From Thermoplasmatota archaeon (GTDB taxonomy: Archaea; Thermoplasmatota; Penumbrarchaeia; Penumbrarchaeales; Penumbrarchaeaceae), in contig CBDDUX010000038.1 in assembly GCA_965234725.1 (NCBI GenBank), forward strand, positions 19,323 through 83,322: a stretch of 64,000 nt of DNA, read 5' to 3'. The position numbers were made by a program, and so were the translations under genes. The notes beneath the pieces are model-generated. The model made no database searches. It was given only the letters and a program-made list of their open reading frames with translations, and was not told the origin of the DNA. Below are positions 18,130 to 58,341 of this stretch, one piece after another. Within the stretch, counting starts at the first letter, position 1; each line of letters opens with the position of its first letter.

Positions 18130-19479
18130 ATGGAAGACGAGACCATCTGGAAAAGGACGAAATTCGCTGCAGAGATTGGTGAAGAGGATTACAATACAGA
18201 GATCACTCTCTGCGGTTGGGTCCAGTATACACGTAATCTTGGAAAAATGGCCTTCGTCCATCTAAGGGATCGGACAGGGGTCTCCCAATTGACCGCTCTA
18301 TCCAAGACCATGGACAAGGAGCTTTTCAACCTGATAGTTAACGTTCCCAGGGAATCCGCTATAAGTGTTAGAGGTATCGTGAAGCAGTCAACGCAAGCCA
18401 AGGCCGGCTGGGAGATCATACCATACAAGGTCAGGGTGATGGGAGAGGCGATGACCCCACTACCCCTAGGAGTTGTGGACAAGGTTGACGCTGACATGGA
18501 GACAAGGTTGGATAACAGGTTCCTCGATCTGAGAAAACCAGAGGTCCAGGCCATCTTCATGATCAGATCGACATTGTTGAATGCTGTCAGGGAGGTCTTC
18601 CTAGAAGAAGGTTTCATAGAGATACATACTCCCAAGATAGTCGCTACCGCAACTGAAGGAGGGACAGCTCTCTTTGAGATGAAATATTTCAATAGGAAGG
18701 CATATCTGAACCAGTCCCCCCAATTGTTCAAACAGACCATGATGGCAACCGGACTTGACCGGGTCTTCGAGATAGGACCGGCATTTAGAGCCGAAGAGCA
18801 CGATACCGTAAGGCATCTCAACGAGTACACCTCAATAGACTGTGAGATGGCATGGGGGACCTTTGATGACTCATTGGAGATACTCGAAAAGGTCATTCAG
18901 AGGGTCTATTCCAATGTTCTGAACAACAACTACATGGGCCTGGAAATGCTTGGACAGACCCTTGTATCACCAGAGAGACCGTTTCCCAGGTTGGATTATA
19001 AATGTATCATAGACAAACTCTCGGCAAGAGGACTTGAGATCCATGATGAAAAATCAGGGAAGAAGAGGGTGATCGAATGGGGAGATGACATCCCCATGGA
19101 GGGATTCAAAGAGATAGCCAAAGATAGGCCTTCCCTCTATTTCGTTATGAACTGGCCCATGAAATTGAAACCCTTCTACATTCAGCCCAATCCAGATGAT
19201 CCGGAGATTTCCATGGGTTTCGACCTGAATTTCGGTGAGAAGGAGCTGGTCTCCGGAGGACAGAGGGTCCACGATCCTGAACAATTGAAGAAATTGATCA
19301 GGGAGAGAAAACTTGACCCTGCGAATTTCGATTTTTACCTCAAATCCTTTGATTACGGAATGCCTCCTCATTCCGGTTGGGGTCTTGGAGCAGAAAGGCT
19401 CACAATGATCATAACCGGACGGACCAACGTTAGGGAAACGGTGCTTTTCCCCAGGGACAAGAACAGACTCATCCCATGA
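18130..19479 (+). CDS. aspS: Aspartyl-tRNA synthetase, archaeal type
   Basis: OB domain, TRLDNRFLDLR, ATEGGT, LNQSPQL, FRAEEHDT.RHLNE, SGGQR, YGMPPH.GWGLG.ER and FPRD. Start placed at ATG 18130 (ORF opens at 18064). Confidence 0.96.
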   Translation: MEDETIWKRTKFAAEIGEEDYNTEITLCGWVQYTRNLGKMAFVHLRDRTGVSQLTALSKTMDKELFNLIVNVPRESAISVRGIVKQSTQAKAGWEIIPYKVRVMGEAMTPLPLGVVDKVDADMETRLDNRFLDLRKPEVQAIFMIRSTLLNAVREVFLEEGFIEIHTPKIVATATEGGTALFEMKYFNRKAYLNQSPQLFKQTMMATGLDRVFEIGPAFRAEEHDTVRHLNEYTSIDCEMAWGTFDDSLEILEKVIQRVYSNVLNNNYMGLEMLGQTLVSPERPFPRLDYKCIIDKLSARGLEIHDEKSGKKRVIEWGDDIPMEGFKEIAKDRPSLYFVMNWPMKLKPFYIQPNPDDPEISMGFDLNFGEKELVSGGQRVHDPEQLKKLIRERKLDPANFDFYLKSFDYGMPPHSGWGLGAERLTMIITGRTNVRETVLFPRDKNRLIP

Positions 19480-21093: not shown

Positions 21094-21099
21094 AATATA

Positions 21100-21355
21100 T
21101 CTGGAAATTCTTAGGTAATTACTAATTGATCAACAATTTCCAGATTTTATTTATCTGGCAACTCACTTGCGTCACTGATATAGAAAAACGTGAATTCGAG
21201 ACCATTGTAAAAAACAGGCTTCGCCTTAGGTTTTTTACTGTCCTTCGCATCACAGATACGAAGGCCCAGCAACAGTAGATCGTCAATTTCAAGAACTACT
21301 GTGCGGGTCTGGAAATTCTTAGGTAATTACTAATTGATCAACAATTTCCAGATTT
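21100..21355. repeat. Two identical 48-bp palindromic direct repeats (21100-21147, 21308-21355) flanking a 160-bp multi-hairpin segment
   Basis: TCTGGAAATTCTTAGGTAATTACTAATTGATCAACAATTTCCAGATTT occurs twice with a period of 208 bp. Confidence 0.95.
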
Positions 21356-49837: not shown

Positions 49838-52800
49838 TCATTCCTCAATATCAATTTGGACCTGAGCGGTCACTATCTTTTGTGGAGATGGTTTCTTCTT
49901 TCCTTTAAGAATAAGGAAAATGACAACACTGGTGATAATAAGCAGTAAAATTGTCATTATGGCAATGAACCAGGATTCCGGCTCACCTTCGTTCACCACA
50001 AGGGCCTGATAGAATCCGGAGAAAGCCACCATGATGAATGAACCCGCACCTATCCTGCCTGCATATTTATGGATCTTCATGGTCGGCCTTTTATGTTTCA
50101 TTATCTTGGTGTATTTGAAATATAATCCCAATCCAAGAGCAGTGAAGGACCCAATTATAGCAATGATACCGAACCAGGAATGCAGCACTCTCAGATGATC
50201 CCCGGTTCCGGATTCAACCATGATATAACCCAGGATCAAACCGATCGTTCCCATTATCACTGAGGTCGACATCACATAGATATGGAATTTTAAGAAGAAT
50301 TTCCATTTCTTTCGGTATTGTGAGACCCAGGCAGCTATCATACCTCCTACACCCAGGGTCATGAATATTGCATGGAACGGCCACAATACAACAGGGTCCT
50401 CACTTGAGGTCTCTCCTGATGCGATATCGATAGTTCCATAACCGACTCTTGTATGCATATTACTGAAGGAATCCGAATCACCGACCCCCCAGATTATCTT
50501 GACAGTTCCGTTCCTGGGGATCGGATTATCCTTATCATCACCGGTATCCAGTTTTCGGACTATCTCTATGGTGGTAACACCATTTATCTCCCTTCCTCCG
50601 AATGAATCGATATCATCTGTTCCTCCCTGTTCAGTATCAGCGGGATGGGGGCCGGTTGGTCCTGTTGAATATGCATCAATGACCTTGACTGTTCCGTCTC
50701 CTTCCACCCATCCGAATATCATGTCGGAATCTGACATTGCCGTACTGTAATCGATTCCAATTGAGACCCATCCAGTGGTCTTACCCTGAATGGCCAACCT
50801 TATCGAATCACCTTCCACTTTCCAGTATATGGTGATGATCCCGTCTCCAAATGTACCGTTGAAATCATACTCATCTTCTGATATCATTCCATCCAGATCG
50901 GCTGTTACCGGTGGTTCTTTTCCGCCTGGACCAATGGTTAAAACGGCAAATCCTCTCTTGGAGTGTGTCTCCCCGAAATCGTCGTGCTCTCCATAGGCCC
51001 ACATGATGTTCAGGTTGCCTGCAGTGGGAATATCCTTGTCGTAATCGTCACCAGTGGAGATATTCCTTACGAACTCGATCGTCGTCACACCGTCAATTTC
51101 AGTTCCGTTATACTGAAGGATATCCATTGTTCCTCCAAGATGGGTGTCGGGAGGATGAGGGCCGAATTGACCCGTCGAATACGCATCTATGATATGGACA
51201 GCTCCATTTTCGATCCAACCAAGGACCACATCAGAGTCCATCATGACATCTTCTGGGTCGAACCCTATGGAGATCCATCCAGTGGTCCTGGCTGATATTG
51301 CCATGTGAAGGTCCTGGCCCTCGATCGTCCAGTGTACCTTGAAATTGTCGAAGTCAAAACTGGCAGAATCCTTGTACTCACCAGTTGAGATGATTCCATC
51401 CAATCCTCCCACAGGTTGGGGTTCATCCATGTATAGTAGTAGTGTTCCGGATCCTCTATCTGAATGACTGCTCTCCGGATCATCCGAAGAACCCAATCCC
51501 CAGATGATATTGAGGGATCCGGAAGAGGGGATCTCTTTGTCGTATACATCCTGGGTATCCAATTCTCTTATGAATTCTATTGTTGTGTTCCCTTCTGTCT
51601 GGGTTCCGTTGAATGTGATGATATCATCCGAACCACCAAGGTCCGTATCTAACGGGTGAGGTCCCAGGTTTCCCGTAGAATATGTATCCCAGAGACCTGG
51701 CCCGTCATCATCCACCCATCCGATGAGTAGATCGGCATCTTTCATCATGGTGGTTGGTTCGAATCCAATGGATACCCAGCCTTCGGTCTCACCAACCATT
51801 GCCATCCATATCCTGGTCCCGTTAATGGACCAGTGCAAAACAAAAGAACCTCCTCCGAAGGATGCGGAATCATCATATTCGTCCTCTGAAACGATTCCGT
51901 CCAGTGTGGTATTCCTCAGAGGTGGAGGGGGGGGTGGAGGAGTTGTATTGGTCCCGATCTTCCAGGTAGTTGTTCCTCTCCGTGTATGAAGTGAAGTTGG
52001 ATCGTCCGAATCAGAGACTGCCCAGATGATCGTCATAAGACCTGTTTTGTTGATGCTCTTATCATAAAGGTCTGTTGAGGTCATGTTCCTGAGGAACTCT
52101 ATTGTTGTCCATCCATCCGACTCCGTCACATTGAAATCCAGGATATCATTTGTCCCACCAAGGGTAGTATCTTCAGGATGCGGTCCTTCAGGTCCTGTTG
52201 AAAATTGATCGAAAAGATGGGGATCGCCGTCATGATATCCAAGCATCATATCGCCATCTGCCATCCTGTCGGAAGGATCGATGCCGAGAGATATCCACCC
52301 AGTTGCCTGGGCCCTGATCCCAATTGATATTGTGGTTCCATTTAAGTTCCAATGAAGTTCGAACCTATCTGAGTCGAATATCTTCGAGCTGTTATATTCC
52401 CCTTCAGAGATCATACCATCGAATTCTGAAAAATGTAACGGTGGTGGAGGTGGTGGAGGAGGAACGGTTTCATTGGAGAGGTTCCACATGATCGTCCCTC
52501 TCCTTGTATGGGTGGCCATCGGATCGTCTGATTCAGCAACTGCCCAGATAAGTGGGAAAGCATGATCGGTCCAAATCGTACGATCATTAGAATCGCTGGT
52601 GGAAAGGTTCCTTCTGAACTCGAATGTGGTCCAGCCTCCGGATTCCGTTCCGTTATAGGAGATAATATCGAAAGTTCCACCCAGGTCCTCATCGCGGGAA
52701 TGAGGACCTGTCGCACCCGTTGCGAAATGGTCCTCTGACTTTGCGAGGTTTCCTTCAACCCACCCGAAGATAAGATCCGCATCCAACATTCTATCGGTCG

Positions 52801-54100
52801 GGTCGATCCCGATCGACACATAACCGGAGACCTGTGCCCTGATCCCGATATCTATTGATGTTCCGTTCACTTTCCAGTATAGTTCGAACATGTCGCTGTC
52901 AGTTTTCGTTACGTTCCCATATTCATCCGGATCTATAATACCATCAAAATCAGATTTTGGAGGTGGAGGGGGAGGTGGCGGAGGAGTAGCGTCTACCCTC
53001 CAGGTGCCGTAACCGACCTTTGTATGTTTCGCGGAGATATCATCGGATGTTGAGATGCCCCAGATAATGTTCAGCGGAGTTCCTATCGAAATATCCTTGT
53101 CATTGGGATCTCCAGTTGAAAGCGCTCTCTTGATCTCGAGCGTGGTCCAGCCTCCGGATTCTGTAGCGTTGAAAGCCTTGATGTCGTCTGTTCCTCCGGT
53201 CAGATCGGTGTCAAGGATATGTGATGTTGTGGTCGTTGCATAATGGTCCTCTGCATAGGGACCGAAAGCAGAATATCCACCCATCAGGAAATCCGCACCG
53301 AGCATCATTGTAGTGGGGGATATCCCCAGAGATATCCAACCTGTGGTCAATGCCTTCACACCAATTGTGATATTCGGACCTGTAACATTCCAGTACAAAA
53401 GGAAATTCCCCGAATCATATGAAGTGCTGTTTGAATACTCTCCGTCCGTTATAATTCCGTCAAGTTCATCAGAAGCAGGAGGTGGAGGAGGAGGGGTTCC
53501 ATCCATCATGATAGTGTCGAAATCAGCATCATCGTGTTCTTTTGTCCAGTCATCATCTTCCCTTGTGGCCCATATTATCTTCATCGAGGTCCCGTTGACG
53601 AACTTCTTATCATATGCATCCCCGGTTGACATAGCTCTCTTGAATTCTATGGTGGTCGATCCAGCGGATTCAGTCCCGTCAAATTCATCGATATCGAAGG
53701 TCCCGCCGGTGAAGGTAGTATCTTCAGGATGGTTGCCCTTGTCATCGGTACAAAACGTGTCCTTGATGTGTGGTGTCCCGGTTCCATCAACCCATCCGAA
53801 TATCATGTCTGCATTTGTCATGAGGTTCACAGGATCTAATCCCAGGGAAAGCCAGCCAGTGACTTCCGACCTCATCCCTATGTAGATGTCGGCTCCTGTA
53901 GTGGTCCAGAATATCTCGAATTTCCCCTCATCAATGTTCTTGGAACTCTCATATTCGGATACTCCAATTACACCGTCTATTGTAGGATCCGCTCGGGTTG
54001 GAGCAGACTCTCCAGATGATCCGGTAGGACCAAATGGAATTATGAAGAAAGCTAATGCAATGTAGAGGACCGTGATCAGATGAATACCTTTTAAAGACAA
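49838..54100 (-). CDS. Secreted 7x DOMON (heme b-type) protein fused to a cytochrome b561-like membrane domain
   Basis: Seven repeats DG.I...EY / GW.S.G....M..AD / H..RG with Pro-rich linkers. The C-terminal TMs carry four His (FHAIFM, FHIYVM, LHSWFG, IHKYAG). Confidence 0.88.
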   Translation of the reverse strand: MSLKGIHLITVLYIALAFFIIPFGPTGSSGESAPTRADPTIDGVIGVSEYESSKNIDEGKFEIFWTTTGADIYIGMRSEVTGWLSLGLDPVNLMTNADMIFGWVDGTGTPHIKDTFCTDDKGNHPEDTTFTGGTFDIDEFDGTESAGSTTIEFKRAMSTGDAYDKKFVNGTSMKIIWATREDDDWTKEHDDADFDTIMMDGTPPPPPPASDELDGIITDGEYSNSTSYDSGNFLLYWNVTGPNITIGVKALTTGWISLGISPTTMMLGADFLMGGYSAFGPYAEDHYATTTTSHILDTDLTGGTDDIKAFNATESGGWTTLEIKRALSTGDPNDKDISIGTPLNIIWGISTSDDISAKHTKVGYGTWRVDATPPPPPPPPPKSDFDGIIDPDEYGNVTKTDSDMFELYWKVNGTSIDIGIRAQVSGYVSIGIDPTDRMLDADLIFGWVEGNLAKSEDHFATGATGPHSRDEDLGGTFDIISYNGTESGGWTTFEFRRNLSTSDSNDRTIWTDHAFPLIWAVAESDDPMATHTRRGTIMWNLSNETVPPPPPPPPLHFSEFDGMISEGEYNSSKIFDSDRFELHWNLNGTTISIGIRAQATGWISLGIDPSDRMADGDMMLGYHDGDPHLFDQFSTGPEGPHPEDTTLGGTNDILDFNVTESDGWTTIEFLRNMTSTDLYDKSINKTGLMTIIWAVSDSDDPTSLHTRRGTTTWKIGTNTTPPPPPPPLRNTTLDGIVSEDEYDDSASFGGGSFVLHWSINGTRIWMAMVGETEGWVSIGFEPTTMMKDADLLIGWVDDDGPGLWDTYSTGNLGPHPLDTDLGGSDDIITFNGTQTEGNTTIEFIRELDTQDVYDKEIPSSGSLNIIWGLGSSDDPESSHSDRGSGTLLLYMDEPQPVGGLDGIISTGEYKDSASFDFDNFKVHWTIEGQDLHMAISARTTGWISIGFDPEDVMMDSDVVLGWIENGAVHIIDAYSTGQFGPHPPDTHLGGTMDILQYNGTEIDGVTTIEFVRNISTGDDYDKDIPTAGNLNIMWAYGEHDDFGETHSKRGFAVLTIGPGGKEPPVTADLDGMISEDEYDFNGTFGDGIITIYWKVEGDSIRLAIQGKTTGWVSIGIDYSTAMSDSDMIFGWVEGDGTVKVIDAYSTGPTGPHPADTEQGGTDDIDSFGGREINGVTTIEIVRKLDTGDDKDNPIPRNGTVKIIWGVGDSDSFSNMHTRVGYGTIDIASGETSSEDPVVLWPFHAIFMTLGVGGMIAAWVSQYRKKWKFFLKFHIYVMSTSVIMGTIGLILGYIMVESGTGDHLRVLHSWFGIIAIIGSFTALGLGLYFKYTKIMKHKRPTMKIHKYAGRIGAGSFIMVAFSGFYQALVVNEGEPESWFIAIMTILLLIITSVVIFLILKGKKKPSPQKIVTAQVQIDIEE

Positions 54101-54183
54101 AACGACACCTCGATTTTTCCCAAATAGGATTTATCTTCATTCATTATATGGGTTTTTCTCTTGAAAAAGTGATTTTACAGGCA

Positions 54184-54737
54184 AAGGTGTGACTAAAGGA
54201 GGTTTAAATCAAGATGTAATTTCCTTTAGTCTACAGAGCGGTCCATTCTAACTTTAGTTTAAAAATCGTTGAAATTGAAATTATCCACACAAGGACCGGT
54301 TGGGAGGGGTCTTATCGTAGTATTATTGTCGATATTCAAGATAAGACCCCTGAGATGAAAAACGGTTCTCAGTTTATCTCATCATTTTTCATCGTGTGTA
54401 ATCAATTTGTAGCAGTGAAATCCGTATCAATATATCATTGACGATAGGAGTTCACTGCGGAAGAGGTCCACTCCCCGAATAGGATTATAAAACAATAAGA
54501 GGGGAGTGGACCGGTCGGGAGGAGGGTGAAATGCTTTTCACACGACTTAGGAAAATCGTTTGCGATTTTCTGGTATCTTGACCGCGGGGCAGAGTAATTT
54601 GAGAGTATCTGCCAGGTCAAGGTGTGACTAAAGGAGATTTTAATCTAAATCTAATAACCTTTAGTCTACGGGCCGGTCCATTCTTCGCAATAATTCAATA
54701 GTAATTATAAGAAGAATGGACCGGTCGGGATTTGAAC
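54184..54737. repeat. Structured repeat cluster 1: hairpin modules delimited by tRNA 3'-end fragments at 54293-54305, 54507-54520 and 54717-54737
   Basis: (T)GGACCGGTCGGGA copies, the first with one mismatch; the last extends to the reverse complement of GTTCAAATCCCGACCGGTCCA. The modules recur at 57.75-58.34 kb. Confidence 0.9.
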
Positions 54738-54839
54738 TAAATATGGTTTAGAACTTATTTTTATTCATTTAAGTTATTAAAGAGGTGATCTGTTCGAACC
54801 TACCTTTGCGAATCTCCTGGGATCGATTGTCCACTTATT

Positions 54840-55032
54840 GGGTGGACCAAGAGAAAACTCTGCCGCCCCCGGATGAAGTAGCATTGGAGGAAACCTCTCC
54901 TTTCCGGCCATTGAATTATCCGAATTGGAGAGGCTTCCGCCCGCGAAAAAGGAAATCTTGGACGAAAACCCGGATATGGAACCCGGGAAGGACGAAGAGC
55001 CGGAGATGGAGTATCTGGACCCAGAAGCATAG
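54840..55032 (+). pseudogene. Frameshifted remnant of an acidic Pro-rich C-terminal tail
   Basis: VDQEKTLPPPDEVALEETS, then in another frame FPAIELSELERLPPAKKEILDENPDMEPGKDEEPEMEYLDPEA*. Resembles tails of surface proteins elsewhere in this window. Confidence 0.45.
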
Positions 55033-55041
55033 ATGACCTCT

Positions 55042-57297
55042 CTACCTGTAGACTGTGTAAGGGACAGTGAACGAACCCGCGGTTGTTTGGATGCTCAGCT
55101 CCCCGCTTACGGACTGCGCGGTCATATAACCCGAAGCACCTTCCATAATCCCATAGTCTGAGGATGCGGAAACACTGGATATATAACCCGATACGGATCC
55201 CGAACTGCTGATCAGTCCATTTTTTTCTTGGTAGATCAGATGAGGACAACCCCCGGAACACGTGCTTGTCCAGGAACCTGTGACCTTCAATGTTCCGGTA
55301 ACCTTTCCGTTGTTGTTCACAGTCGCGGTCAACGTGACCGTCCCGGAAACCGTGAAGAGATTATTGTAGGCGACGGTCCCGCACTCGGGACAGTTCTGCG
55401 TCAATGTAAATACCGTATTTCCGGTAAAGGGACCTTGGTAGACCAACTCCTGATCGATCGGAGGTTTCTCGATCTTTCCGACAAAGGACTCGTATACATC
55501 TTTTCCTCCCTCGAAAATGCTCTTGATGGTCCCTTCGGCGTTGGGAATTATCAAGCTCTCCACTTTGGACCGAAAGCAGTTCTCGACCCTGTTGATACCA
55601 TTCTTGATCATATCGACAGTACCGGGGACATTCAGATTGTGCAAGGCGGCACCCAGGCCGATCTCCCCCATGCCGCCCGTTAATGTCACGTACAGAAGGG
55701 CAGCTGTTGGTAACGCCAGAGCAGCGGCCGGCGCCCCGAAAAGCGCGGCGATCCCAATGGCCACGGCAGCAGTACCGCCAATAACCTTGTAGGCCGTATT
55801 GAAGGCCTCTGCCGGTCCTCTCGCGGAATCGCCGAAATAACCCCTGGACGCCATATTCACATTAGATTCTTGACCGTTCGACAGTGCATCGTAATATGCT
55901 TTAAAGCAATCGCCGGACCGCGTTACGGATCGAACGGGACCTTCATCGATAACCGGTGATTCCCAGTCAGTATCCAATTCCGATTGGGCCAACAACATGC
56001 CCATTATCATCCTGTCAACGAAAGCGAGGGAGGACAGGTCAATATCGATATTATCATCACCGATCGTCCCTATTTTGTAGTTATCGGTATATCCCTGGAT
56101 AACGGGGCGAATACCCTCCACCAGGGATTCCAGGTTTGATAATTGAGCATTTACGGCAGAGGTCATCTCCGTGGTCTCCAGGGATGTGCCCTGGACCCCG
56201 TTCCTGTTCTCCCGGGCAAATTCCAAGGCCGCTTCGAGGAAAATGAGGGTCGCCTGGCCGTCGGGCAGCCCGGAATTGGGCAATTCCAGCGCATGGAATC
56301 CGGACAATGTGTTGGATTTCGTGATCTTGCCTCCGGATTCCTTGATCACCTGGATATCGTAACTCCCGGAGGAGAAGCCCCCATCGCTTGTGATCAAGGG
56401 CGGGACCGCGACCGATACAGTCTTTAGGGTAACATCCACCGAAGGCACCTCAATGGAAATACCATGGTCGTCGGTAAAGCATACCAGGATATCGCCGTAT
56501 GTCCCGAAACCCGTCCCCGAAACCGTAAGTATGGCACCGGGTACGCCGGAGTCCATGTCCATCGACGCTATCTCGAACTTGTCCTCGTCTTCAGTTCCAA
56601 ATCCCATGAACAAAAGACCCGCACCCACGATTATTGCGCCAAGGATCAAAAGGACAATTAAGATGGCAATTGCTCCCAGACAAAGGAACGGGGTCGCGGA
56701 CCCCTTCTTCCTGGGTTTTCTTCTTTCTTCCTCCCCGGTAGATGGAAGATGAGGCGCCTTCCAAGTGAACTTATGACCGCAATCGTTGCATTCCCCCCGG
56801 CCGTCGTCCAGGAAATCGATATCCTTGCTATTGCACTTCTTGCATTTGCCAGTTCTTAGAGTCTTCACATGCTCTTCGACCTGCTCAGGCGCCTTGGGCC
56901 TGGAACTCTTTCTTCTTGAAAGGATAATTATGACTATGATCAATACCACGATCAAAACAAGGATCCCGAGCACTATGGCGCAGATGCCGCAGATTGCAAG
57001 ACCGGAAAAAGCAAAGAGACTAAGATTGTTCCCTTCCTCGGGCTTGTTGGTAGCATCCCTGGGACCTGTTCCTGCCTCGTACTCCTCCTGGTTGTCGTAC
57101 CCCTCCCTGTCCGGGTCCTCATAAATTCCTTCTTCAACACCACCGAGATATTGGATCTCCCACAAATCCAGGAGCCCATCCGAATCGGAATCGCCCACAT
57201 TGTCCTGCGCCGATGTTGAAGTAAAGGCGCAGATCAGTATCAAAGTGGATAAGAACAATGCAAAGCTAATAAGGACAGTTCTTCTTTTATTCTTCAC
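55042..57297 (-). CDS. Cargo membrane protein: Ca-binding DxDxDG, TM, Zn ribbon, TM, IPT/TIG-like domain, long hydrophobic segment
   Basis: DSDSDGLLDLWE, CKKC...CNDC, SGVPGAILTVSGTGFG, and a Gly/Ala-rich hydrophobic stretch. Confidence 0.75.
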   Translation of the reverse strand: MKNKRRTVLISFALFLSTLILICAFTSTSAQDNVGDSDSDGLLDLWEIQYLGGVEEGIYEDPDREGYDNQEEYEAGTGPRDATNKPEEGNNLSLFAFSGLAICGICAIVLGILVLIVVLIIVIIILSRRKSSRPKAPEQVEEHVKTLRTGKCKKCNSKDIDFLDDGRGECNDCGHKFTWKAPHLPSTGEEERRKPRKKGSATPFLCLGAIAILIVLLILGAIIVGAGLLFMGFGTEDEDKFEIASMDMDSGVPGAILTVSGTGFGTYGDILVCFTDDHGISIEVPSVDVTLKTVSVAVPPLITSDGGFSSGSYDIQVIKESGGKITKSNTLSGFHALELPNSGLPDGQATLIFLEAALEFARENRNGVQGTSLETTEMTSAVNAQLSNLESLVEGIRPVIQGYTDNYKIGTIGDDNIDIDLSSLAFVDRMIMGMLLAQSELDTDWESPVIDEGPVRSVTRSGDCFKAYYDALSNGQESNVNMASRGYFGDSARGPAEAFNTAYKVIGGTAAVAIGIAALFGAPAAALALPTAALLYVTLTGGMGEIGLGAALHNLNVPGTVDMIKNGINRVENCFRSKVESLIIPNAEGTIKSIFEGGKDVYESFVGKIEKPPIDQELVYQGPFTGNTVFTLTQNCPECGTVAYNNLFTVSGTVTLTATVNNNGKVTGTLKVTGSWTSTCSGGCPHLIYQEKNGLISSSGSVSGYISSVSASSDYGIMEGASGYMTAQSVSGELSIQTTAGSFTVPYTVYR

Positions 57298-57372
57298 CTT
57301 GAGACCTCAAGTATATAGGTTTGTAGTAATATTAAAAACATCTCAATTATAAAGAAAATATTGTTTTATTGG

Positions 57373-57642
57373 CTAATGAATAGCGTTAACTCGATCTTTC
57401 ACGTGCTGATCGAGGGTGAACTGTTTGTTCCCCTTACCGTTCTTCTTCATATATTGACGGGTCCCTCGGCCGAATCCCATCTTCTCACACACAATATATG
57501 AAAAGGATAGAATTTTCTTTCGGAGGTCCTGATTATCAACACGTTCAAGTTTCAGAGTAGGTTGAGATGGATCGAGCGTTTTCCAATTGCCTATAATATG
57601 GTTGGATAATTCTTGAGTTTTCATTTGGATGATATTAATCCA
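57373..57642 (-). pseudogene. cas1: 5'-truncated remnant of a Cas1-solo/casposase gene (C-terminal helices + HTH)
   Basis: WINIIQMKTQELSNHIIG..KTLD...P..KLERVDNQDLRKKILSFSY...KMGFGRGT.QYMKKN...NKQFTL..HVKDR resembles, from memory, the HTH-bearing C-terminus of archaeal stand-alone Cas1/casposases. An in-frame TGA precedes the Trp. Confidence 0.7.
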
Positions 57643-57752
57643 TCACTGGTTTAGACTTAATAATTGGACCAATTGAGTTCTAAACCGGTTTTAGGGCAGA
57701 ACGTAATAATCTTGTTTAATCCAGATATATTGAGAATATTTCTAAATATGAA

Positions 57753-58341
57753 TGGTGGACCGGTCGGGACCTTGGCCGCGGGGCAGAGTATTTTGAGAGT
57801 ATCTGCCAGGTCAAGGTGTGACTAAAGGAGTTGTTCTTCAGAATATCATTACCTTTAGTCTACAGACCGGGACACTTTTCCTTTAGTTTTGAAAAGGTTG
57901 AAATTGATATTATACACACAGGACCGGTCGGGACCTTTGAATCGTAGTGATATTATCGTTTATTCAGATTCAAAGGCATCGCCAAAACCTTCGGTTTTGT
58001 CTGTCCCTCGGTTTCCCTACACTCAACCTCGGGAGCCAGATGAAAAACGAAAAAATGAGTTGTGATCTTTCAAATCTTTTCAATCATTGAAATTATTTTA
58101 ATAAACACAGGTGGACCGGTCGGGAGGGGTCTTATCGTAGTATTATTGTCGATTTTCAAGATAAGACCCCTCAGATGAAAAACGGTCATCATTAATATAT
58201 CATCATTTTTCATCGCGTATAATCAATATGTAGCAATGGTTTTCGTAGAAATTTGGAATTGACGATAGAAAACCATTGCGGAATAGGTCCACTCTCCGTT
58301 AATAATTAGAAAATAATTAGAGGAGAGTGGACCGGTCGGGA
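57753..58341. repeat. Structured repeat cluster 2: hairpin modules delimited by tRNA 3'-end fragments at 57753-57769, 57921-57933, 58110-58125 and 58328-58341
   Basis: The first copy is the reverse complement of TCCCGACCGGTCCACCA, including CCA. Module 58126-58327 is homologous to 54306-54506; 57770-57920 is homologous to 54577-54670 and 54184-54292. Confidence 0.9.

Follow-up and report, generated by a model that had tools for sequence, protein, structure and literature searches.

A family-wide class of non-coding hairpin mini-elements at the ends of archaeal tRNA genes

Along contig CBDDUX010000038.1 of an uncultured Thermoplasmatota archaeon (family Penumbrarchaeaceae, assembly GCA_965234725.1), a chain of hairpins recurs whose stems change in compensated fashion and whose loops drift in sequence while keeping nearly the same length, which raises the question of what these hairpins are and what maintains their geometry. 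They lie between positions 54,191 and 58,333 of a stretch of 64,000 nucleotides (contig positions 19,323 to 83,322), here called the window. A preliminary description made from the letters alone took them for a structured RNA or single-stranded DNA (ssDNA) measured by a protein, and suggested that the loops could be guide-like. The analysis reported here showed that the hairpins are modules of gene-less units, 92-216 nt long, that lie on the minus strand between seven copies of the 3' end of tRNA-Ala, and that such units are a real, family-wide class of tRNA-end mini-elements. Their layout looks like the product of a mode of DNA insertion at tRNA genes that has not been described before.

Units between tRNA tail copies

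The 13-mer between the hairpins, present as GGACCGGTCGGGA repeats, is the reverse complement of positions 60-72 of the tRNA-Ala 3' end, an organizing element that the preliminary description had overlooked. These tail copies are found (minus strand) at 58341, 58125, 57933, 57769, 54730, 54520, and 54305, with a degenerate eighth near 57677, and they bound units of 216, 192, 164, 92, 210, and 215 nt, one 3.0-kb gene cassette, and a terminal partial unit (Table 1). Each unit spans from one copy of the last 13-14 bases of the tRNA to the next, and each tail copy is flanked by two stems of about 10-12 bp with 22-25-nt loops, H3 before it and H1 or Ha after it, other hairpins being optional. The tRNA itself is outside the window. 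In G004, a congeneric genome, six units come immediately after tRNA-Ala(TGC), and after them the DOMON-domain gene that also follows the array in the window; the genes upstream in G004 match the start of contig C103 of the window's genome (G000; 3.54 Mb in 114 contigs, with the window on contig C38), and the end of C103 carries tRNA-Ala(TGC). From this synteny, rather than from an assembled link between the two contigs, we infer that the window array sits behind the tRNA-Ala(TGC) of C103. Three units are orthologous between the two arrays, the 210-nt unit to the first unit of G004 (155 nt, 89% identity), the 215-nt unit to its second (95%), and the terminal unit to its terminal unit (88%), and the remainder differs by whole units and cassettes; arrays of this kind gain and lose whole units.

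The stems and loops quoted in the preliminary description were all found in place, including the GACTAAAGG/CCTTTAGTC stem at 54191, 54626, and 57820 with the quoted 23-nt loop in each, the hairpins with 24-nt loops GGTCCACTCCCC (54465) and GGTCCACTCTCC (58286), and those with 23-nt loops GCAATGGTTTTC (58233), GGGGTCTTATC (54306, 58126), and CCTTTGAATC (57934). The pair GCAGTGAA/TTCACTGC encloses 31 nt as written, but extended it forms a 12-bp stem with one mismatch around a 23-nt loop. Loop length proved to be constrained, as had been claimed, yet not single-valued, for the middle hairpin, which is shorter in span and more variable, has loops of 19-24 nt. The intergenic DNA of G000 holds 22 perfect stems of at least 9 bp with a 22-nt loop, 32 with a 23-nt loop, and 18 with a 24-nt loop, compared to 1-15 for any other loop length from 5 to 60, and its coding DNA shows no loop-length peak for perfect stems. 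A collection of 183 distinct units from 99 tRNA loci, which was enriched by a covariance-model search, holds 405 distinct hairpins under a finder that accepted loops of 8-45 nt, and 265 of these have 22-25-nt loops; each shuffled replicate yielded about 10. Folding of the 216-nt unit as DNA gives z = -6.7 for the plus strand and -7.8 for the minus strand, values equaled by none of 200 shuffles. The hairpin geometry is not due to chance. No Rfam family was found for the hairpins (best score 21 bits against a gathering score of 48.5), and helical phasing of unit lengths is weak, with R of 0.32 at 10.2 bp for the 183 units and at most 0.19 for the 61 distinct lengths.

How closely the units are tied to their tRNAs can be read from the tail copies. 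Of 187 copies, 118 match the tRNA down to position 60 and no further; in 26 the match continues for one more base, and in 30 for five more, into the T loop. Nearly all informative copies (159 of 169) are closest to the local tRNA; seven are closer to another variant, including a Gly(GCC)-type copy behind Gly(TCC), and three are tied. Among the copies that differ from the local tRNA, distal ones at locus L133 keep the variant of relatives, and those at L202 and L208 copy another Gly isoacceptor type, possible traces of the age order of arrays and of moves between loci.

The first stem begins within the tail; for Gly, Leu, Ser, and Trp its first position is 71, and for Ala, Glu, and Asp, whose units have an additional hairpin, it falls at 64-68. 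The arm of this stem repeats the local tRNA tail in inverted form and differs by target accordingly: GCA for Gly and Leu, GCG for Ser, CCA for Trp, GGTCCA for Ala, and GGGAGCA for Glu. Units usually hold this mirror copy about 24 bases from the tail copy. In two complete chromosomes from other lineages, G041 (CP070751.1) and G042 (CP070739.1), positions 63-73 recur as an inverted copy (at least 9 of 11 matches) at 12 of 46 tRNA genes, nine of the 12 at 25-26 nt; each fits its own tail best, and non-cognate controls gave 2 of 814. Inverted head copies lie upstream of 12 of 46 tRNA genes in the same chromosomes, at a looser threshold and with no control set, and some anticodon labels in both are unreliable owing to introns. 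If anything guides, it is the arm of the first stem rather than the loop. Mirror modules were also observed at tRNA 5' ends, with a copy of the first 11-15 bases and in many cases an inverted head copy 21-26 nt upstream (L236, L239, L253, L258, L264, L265, L273, and L283; in G000 on C3 at Leu-TAA, C76 at Ser-TGA, and C63 at Ser-CGA).

Tail copies lie within 330 nt of 16 tRNA genes in G000. The three-hairpin core was sought with a covariance model, which replaced a strict two-motif pattern that matched only 7 of 24 genomes; the model found the core in 24 of 24 family genomes, 1 of 2 sister-family genomes, and 1 of 11 other genomes of the class. The exact pattern of tRNA-Ala tail plus inverted arm occurs at 30 loci among GTDB species genomes, which by record title are 24 Thermoplasmatota, 2 unclassified archaea, 1 labeled Bacteroidota, and 3 Actinomycetes; the Bacteroidota-labeled 2-kb contig carries typical modules, and the Actinomycetes matches are probably chance. 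The units in G041 and G042 are 93-102 nt long and consist only of the two tail-flanking hairpins. Tail copies lie downstream of 20 of 44 tRNA genes there and head copies upstream of 13 of 44 (genes from 40 regions, part of 85 tRNA matches), a few of which are neighboring tRNA genes. In G041 about 17 tRNA matches are clustered within 3 kb (G041:C1:4640571-4643566).

Base pairing, strand preference and loop sequence

A sequence-only hidden Markov model collected 57 distinct cores, of which the 51 full-length ones were aligned and 6 partial ones left out. The covariation expected from the preliminary description is present in this larger alignment, where 94.3% of cells are paired, compared to 66.9% after shuffling and 36-52% with slid partners. 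Two-sided changes occur at 30 of 33 pairs in the 51 units, the covariation score is 0.69 against 0.19, and RNAalifold recovers the same three helices unaided. Conserved pairing and spacing fit a folded nucleic acid measured by a protein, and this part of the earlier interpretation is supported. The accompanying idea of selection on pairing and loop length agrees with the way in which both are kept while the sequence changes, but selection is probably only part of the story, since two-sided changes arise far faster than two independent hits would allow and transversions equal transitions.

The mismatches indicate which strand, and which kind of nucleic acid, is folded. There are 113 of them among 2540 stem pairs in 234 distinct hairpins, and on the tRNA-sense strand they are 21 G-T, 50 A-C, 19 C-T, and 3 A-G. 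The antisense strand, which is the plus strand of the window, is favored (G-T 50 vs 21, G-A 19 vs 3), and the broader hairpin set from 183 units goes in the same direction more weakly (23 sense vs 37 antisense, p 0.09). Sense-strand G-T pairs make up less than 1% of all pairs; structured RNAs usually contain many more G-U pairs. Along spanning trees of related hairpins, one-sided mismatches are steady at 0.05-0.07 per pair, and two-sided Watson-Crick swaps climb from 0.005-0.014 to 0.12 per pair as loop divergence goes from 0.07 to 0.2, with transitions to transversions at 71:66 and 63:77, all of these mismatch and swap counts being trends rather than p-values because the hairpins are related by descent. 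Two independent hits are estimated to give about 0.013 at a loop divergence of 0.2, rising to about 0.05 if divergence at free sites is twice as rapid. Rare wobble pairs that favor the antisense strand, together with equal transversion and transition swaps, point to folded ssDNA with templated arm repair and not to RNA under selection alone, and we infer that one arm is repaired from the other in a folded intermediate. Between the structured RNA and the ssDNA that the preliminary description had left side by side, folded ssDNA is thus favored and RNA disfavored, sense-strand G-T (21) being fewer than A-C (50).

The loops have the consensus sequences TTTCGTCAATT... and TGGATTATCGTCAATT... and share the motif CGTCAAT; the CG core of the consensus was part of the selection rule and is also (nearly) invariant in the unselected alignment. 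A second hairpin-chain family with a CGTCAAT loop motif and 22-25-nt loops was observed away from tRNA genes, at 21099-21352 of the window (G000:C38:40421-40674) and on C3, C7, C26, C31, C60, C63, C69, C77, C100, C103, and C114. Several of its chains adjoin terminator-like hairpins, and one lies beyond an apparent 16S rRNA 3' end.

Proposed insertion at tRNA ends and its alternatives

We give an even chance to the reading that the hairpins are the structural parts of non-coding mini-elements which are inserted, as folded ssDNA, at the ends of tRNAs and carry a self-rewriting inverted arm. A unit would be released as a small ssDNA circle, probably from the tRNA-antisense strand; units of 93-102 nt would make a rather small double-stranded circle. 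Acting in trans, a structure-specific enzyme would bind the stems and read loop motifs and loop length, one strand would be exchanged at the tRNA tail, and replication would complete the insertion, leaving the tRNA intact with one extra tail copy. The inverted arm would pair with the tail, and repair synthesis on the folded unit would rewrite the arm with the tail as template, so that the unit would be retailored to a new tRNA, which would also explain the concerted stem changes. A fuller proposal, which we put forward tentatively and with some doubt, is self-retargeting insertion in which ssDNA units find the tRNA end by arm pairing, a structure-specific enzyme measures 12-bp stems and 23-24-nt loops, and the arm is rewritten for each target, at both ends of tRNA genes and in several Thermoplasmatota lineages.

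Several observations weigh against insertion as folded ssDNA. No tested enzyme family is present in all carriers of the units, no enzyme lies consistently beside the arrays, and no circle or excision joint was seen in the contigs of four sequencing runs, the best of which probably represents the source sample. The common descent of the hairpins behind the mismatch and swap trends also counts here, and the closest hairpin pairs show one-sided mismatches with almost no two-sided change, so that correction does not act all the time. The occurrence of units in 24 of 24 family genomes would fit a host function as well, and small RNAs are transcribed from E. coli tRNA-linked repeats (TLRs) that lie downstream of rRNA operons (PMC8144298).

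A role as RNA would make the units trailers or leaders of tRNA precursors that are cut into small RNAs or tune processing, with the tail duplication as a by-product of unequal recombination. The units lie within reach of read-through transcripts, tRNA 5' ends have mirror modules, RNA folding of the sense strand gives a z of -8.8, and E. coli TLRs share the tail-copy layout, three of them being processed RNAs (PMC8144298). We nonetheless consider this role quite unlikely, given that sense-strand G-U-type pairs (21 of 2540) are fewer than A-C mismatches, that transversion swaps are as frequent as transition swaps, and that copy number and unit type vary among close relatives. The suggestion that the loops are guides or captured spacers of an RNA-guided system fared worst, and we regard it as extremely improbable. 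Their fixed length of 22-25 nt and their faster divergence than the stems would suit spacers, but the loops are alignable and bear motifs in common, units at different tRNAs share them, one loop is identical at two tRNA-Ala loci, and no match outside sister units rises above shuffles. Against the host genome, the best non-self matches of 14 window loops were sister units or scored at shuffle level; one outside match was 21 of 24 and AT-rich, where shuffles reach 20. Three module patterns found nothing in viral contigs (0), phage records likewise gave no match, and plasmids gave four weak matches of 28-38 nt.

The units could also be minimal att-only satellites of ordinary tRNA integrases, exchanged as double-stranded attP x attB with the inverted repeats serving as protein sites or cruciforms, while the integrases themselves come and go with mobile elements. 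In favor of this reading, which we judge unlikely, gene cassettes of this array terminate in GTTCTAAACC-N14-tail, a motif akin to it is found between the tRNA and a gene for an integrase of about 425 aa (C97, C75/C56), G000 has seven PF00589 matches, and single integrase genes adjoin arrays in G008, G009, and G012. The small units, however, lack the GTTCTAAACC motif, their stem sequences are freely replaced, unlike sequence-specific arms, and their lengths show no clear helical phasing; the integrase of about 425 aa was found in 0 of 5 other carriers, a weak result as that search matched nothing at all, and G041 has only two short PF00589 frames. A further alternative, very unlikely in our estimate, is that a casposase builds the array in the manner of CRISPR, a staggered cut duplicating 13-15 bp of the tRNA end and mini-casposons being inserted. 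The duplicated block of 13-15 nt resembles casposon target duplications (PMC5137440), a casposase remnant lies within the array, and G000 has a casposase gene behind tRNA-Leu(CAG). Known casposon target duplications, 14-15 bp long, however, overlap just the last 4-5 tRNA bases (PMC5137440, PMC6977970), whereas the units duplicate positions 60-73 and have trailers that differ between units. Cas1 turned up in 4 of 16 carriers but in neither of the two complete chromosomes, and unit ends are not mutual inverted repeats, many right ends being AAGG, ATG, or ACA. The register, the termini, and the distribution led us to reject a casposase as the array builder.

Enzymes that might serve insertion as folded ssDNA were sought among six named families and three single proteins. 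PF00589 is found in 15 of 23 family genomes; in G041, its only frames are 98 and 63 aa long. Eight tyrosine-recombinase candidates all scored under the TIGR02249 (integron integrase) cut-off, a 270-aa recombinase family had no close match in G000, no integrase was found among the window open reading frames (ORFs) scanned, and comparison of the longest ORF per locus revealed no recurrent neighbor gene beside the arrays. A tyrosine recombinase of about 240 aa without the usual N-terminal domain was observed at L173 1128-1856, L071 1399-2127, and G000:C64:5114-5824, and adjoins arrays in two genomes. Reverse transcriptase occurs in 4 of 12 genomes and once in G000; the Y1 transposase in 2 of 12, which are the two distant chromosomes, with 0 of 10 family genomes and no HUH Y1 match in G000. 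No Y2 transposase was found in G000, but the control likewise matched nowhere. IS110 has two matches in G000, with no modules seen beside the full-length one. The most regular candidate is a serine recombinase of about 285 aa, present in 9 of 12 genomes and in G000 but not found in the carriers G007, G012, and G042. It fits poorly, since double-strand exchange with a hairpin dumbbell would, by our reasoning, yield capped ends and not the observed insert. The gene (G000:C62:27164-28009; L318-L323, L325, L326) encodes a catalytic and a recombinase domain with a short C-terminus, is fixed behind tRNA-Cys in the family, where it is syntenic and accompanied by a small AbrB-like gene (label by eye), and looks domesticated.

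Among known systems, E. coli TLRs are similar in layout, with 1-5 non-coding repeats that follow a tRNA or rRNA gene and each close with a copy of that gene's 3' end, mostly without a known function (PMC8144298). The archaeal copy is shorter, 13-15 nt with a sharp start at position 60, and the archaeal units are fixed-geometry hairpin chains common to many tRNAs; they also carry an inverted, target-matched arm, which TLRs may share. Integron attC cassettes, which also occur in archaea, likewise keep structure while sequence is free, favor one strand as the units apparently do, and form tandem arrays, some of single genes (bioRxiv 2022.02.06.479319). The units differ from attC in targeting the tRNA end with a 13-15-nt duplication, in their fixed loops of 22-25 nt, and in stems without conserved bulges. 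The attP(+) site of CTX phage can be likened to the units alongside attC. RYYYAAC/GTTRRRY boxes were not seen in the units when the consensus was compared by eye, without an attC model. An integron was rejected: no integrase reached the integron-integrase cut-off, and neither R and L boxes with extrahelical bases nor a variable terminal structure were seen.

IS200/IS605 and REP/BIME elements (HUH Y1) resemble the units in their ssDNA circles, sub-terminal hairpins, and choice of target by base pairing with their own DNA (PMC5934647, PMC5027513), and IS608 is a precedent for pairing-based targeting (PMC5934647). The matching arm of the units, by comparison, is 5-11 nt and inverted. To our knowledge, IS200/IS605-type elements make no target duplication. 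IS200/IS605 and REP/RAYT were rejected, no Y1 transposase having been found in G000 or in 10 family genomes. Casposons occur in tandem (PMC4779613), and those at tRNA 3' ends in Aciduliprofundum boonei and Methanosarcina have repeats of about 14 bp between insertions and casposase relics; the units are of another register, contain neither cas1 nor polB (no search aimed at polB was made), and lack the terminal inverted repeats of family 2 casposons (TCCC(C) ends; PMC6614799 for the end motif). Tandem integrative elements and partial tRNAs at tRNA genes, such as tycheposon islands, are of a kind that, as far as the available accounts go, the gene-bearing cassettes of the array fit; the hairpin units of 92-216 nt, which have no genes, are structured and much smaller. 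No published description of such units was found in a search that most subscription journals lay beyond and that left supplements unread.

Gene cassettes and neighboring features

The array also holds protein-coding DNA (Table 1). Motifs like GTTCTAAACC, placed 14 nt before a tail copy, end gene cassettes here, on C28 and C12, and in G004, and a similar motif precedes the genes for integrases of about 425 aa behind tRNA-Arg (C97) and tRNA-Pro (C75/C56). We take these integrases to be SNJ2-like; no NCBIfam family matched them. The gene cassettes resemble ordinary integrase islands with the same target as the hairpin units. At G000:C28:2021-14413 (L098), tRNA-Ala(GGC) is followed by single-gene cassettes with 92-nt modules between them, headed by the same 92-nt module as at 57678..57769 of the window; their genes include methyltransferase-like and large secreted-type proteins (labels by eye), and no integrase was seen. 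In the window, the large ORF beyond the array would be cargo of an island between the array and the tRNA-Ala(TGC) on C103. The chromosomal gene at the other end encodes a protein with seven DOMON domains, proline linkers, and an end that resembles cytochrome b561.

Table 1. Features of the tRNA-Ala array and its surroundings, in window positions; G004 is a genome of the same genus
Feature	Positions	Strand	Remarks
Seven-DOMON-domain membrane protein, chromosomal gene after the array	49838..54100	-	also in G004
Terminal partial unit	54176..54305	-	tail copy 54293-54305 (one change), GACTAAAGG hairpin 54191-54231; 88% identity to G004 terminal unit
215-nt four-hairpin unit	54306..54520	-	tail copy 54508-54520, H1 54465-54512, Ha 54412-54458, Hm 54354-54393, H3 54305-54351
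210-nt unit	54521..54730	-	tail copy 54718-54730, H1 54673-54724, GACTAAAGG hairpin 54626-54666
GTTCTAAACC motif, 14 nt before tail copy, distal end of gene-bearing cassettes	54745..54754	-	inverse follows tRNA-Ala on C102, C103
751-aa membrane-anchored protein, cargo of the 3.0-kb cassette inside the array	55042..57297	-	cassette absent from G004 array
Broken casposase (Cas1-solo), C-terminal remnant	57364..57672	-	E 6e-19 to PDB 6OPM residues 333-412
92-nt module	57678..57769	-	tail copy 57757-57769 to degenerate T-loop/tail copy 57665-57686
164-nt unit	57770..57933	-	tail copy 57921-57933, decayed H1, GACTAAAGG hairpin 57820-57860; 83% identity to G004 165-nt unit
192-nt rearranged or decayed unit	57934..58125	-	tail copy 58113-58125 at start, H3 57934-57976 at end
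216-nt four-hairpin unit	58126..58341	-	H1 58286-58333 (arm = tRNA tail, 24-nt loop)
216-nt unit, other hairpins		-	Ha 58233-58279 (23 nt, CGTCAAT), Hm 58174-58214 (23 nt), H3 58125-58171 (23 nt)
tRNA-Ala 3' end copy (positions 60-72), tRNA-proximal array end	58329..58341	-	tRNA-Ala genes on contigs C28, C102, C103
Large secreted-type ORF, F5/8 type C domain, open at contig end	58613..64000	+	start codon read from sequence

The casposase remnant shares 46% identity with the full casposase on C59, which lies behind tRNA-Leu(CAG) and whose 408-aa product is cut by the contig start (G000:C59:1-2456; L042). In relatives such remnants lie apart from the arrays, and we judge the one in the window to be a passenger. 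Casposon-type ends behind tRNA-Leu tails were seen at C59:1-2456 and on C55 near 261, with a 14-bp TGCA/CGCA segment plus GGGGTATTATAC; both have the canonical casposon register and a GGGG-type terminus. At 57645-57689 of the window there is a hairpin with a 23-nt loop, one arm of which comes from the 92-nt module and the other from inside the casposase remnant, and this junction may have been chosen by an inverted match.

Tail-copying repeats have been known in E. coli since 1978 without a mechanism. Here the design is readable, with fixed-geometry hairpins, a junction at position 60, a target-matched inverted arm, and a minimal form of 100 nt, so that the way in which the arrays arise can be tested using short oligonucleotides. 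Should the arm prove to be a guide that updates itself, the enzyme behind it would represent a new type of programmable integrase, and self-retargeting insertion, if true, would amount to a DNA-guided integrase whose guide reprograms itself. For this archaeal family, the arrays mark sites where accessory gene cassettes are taken up.

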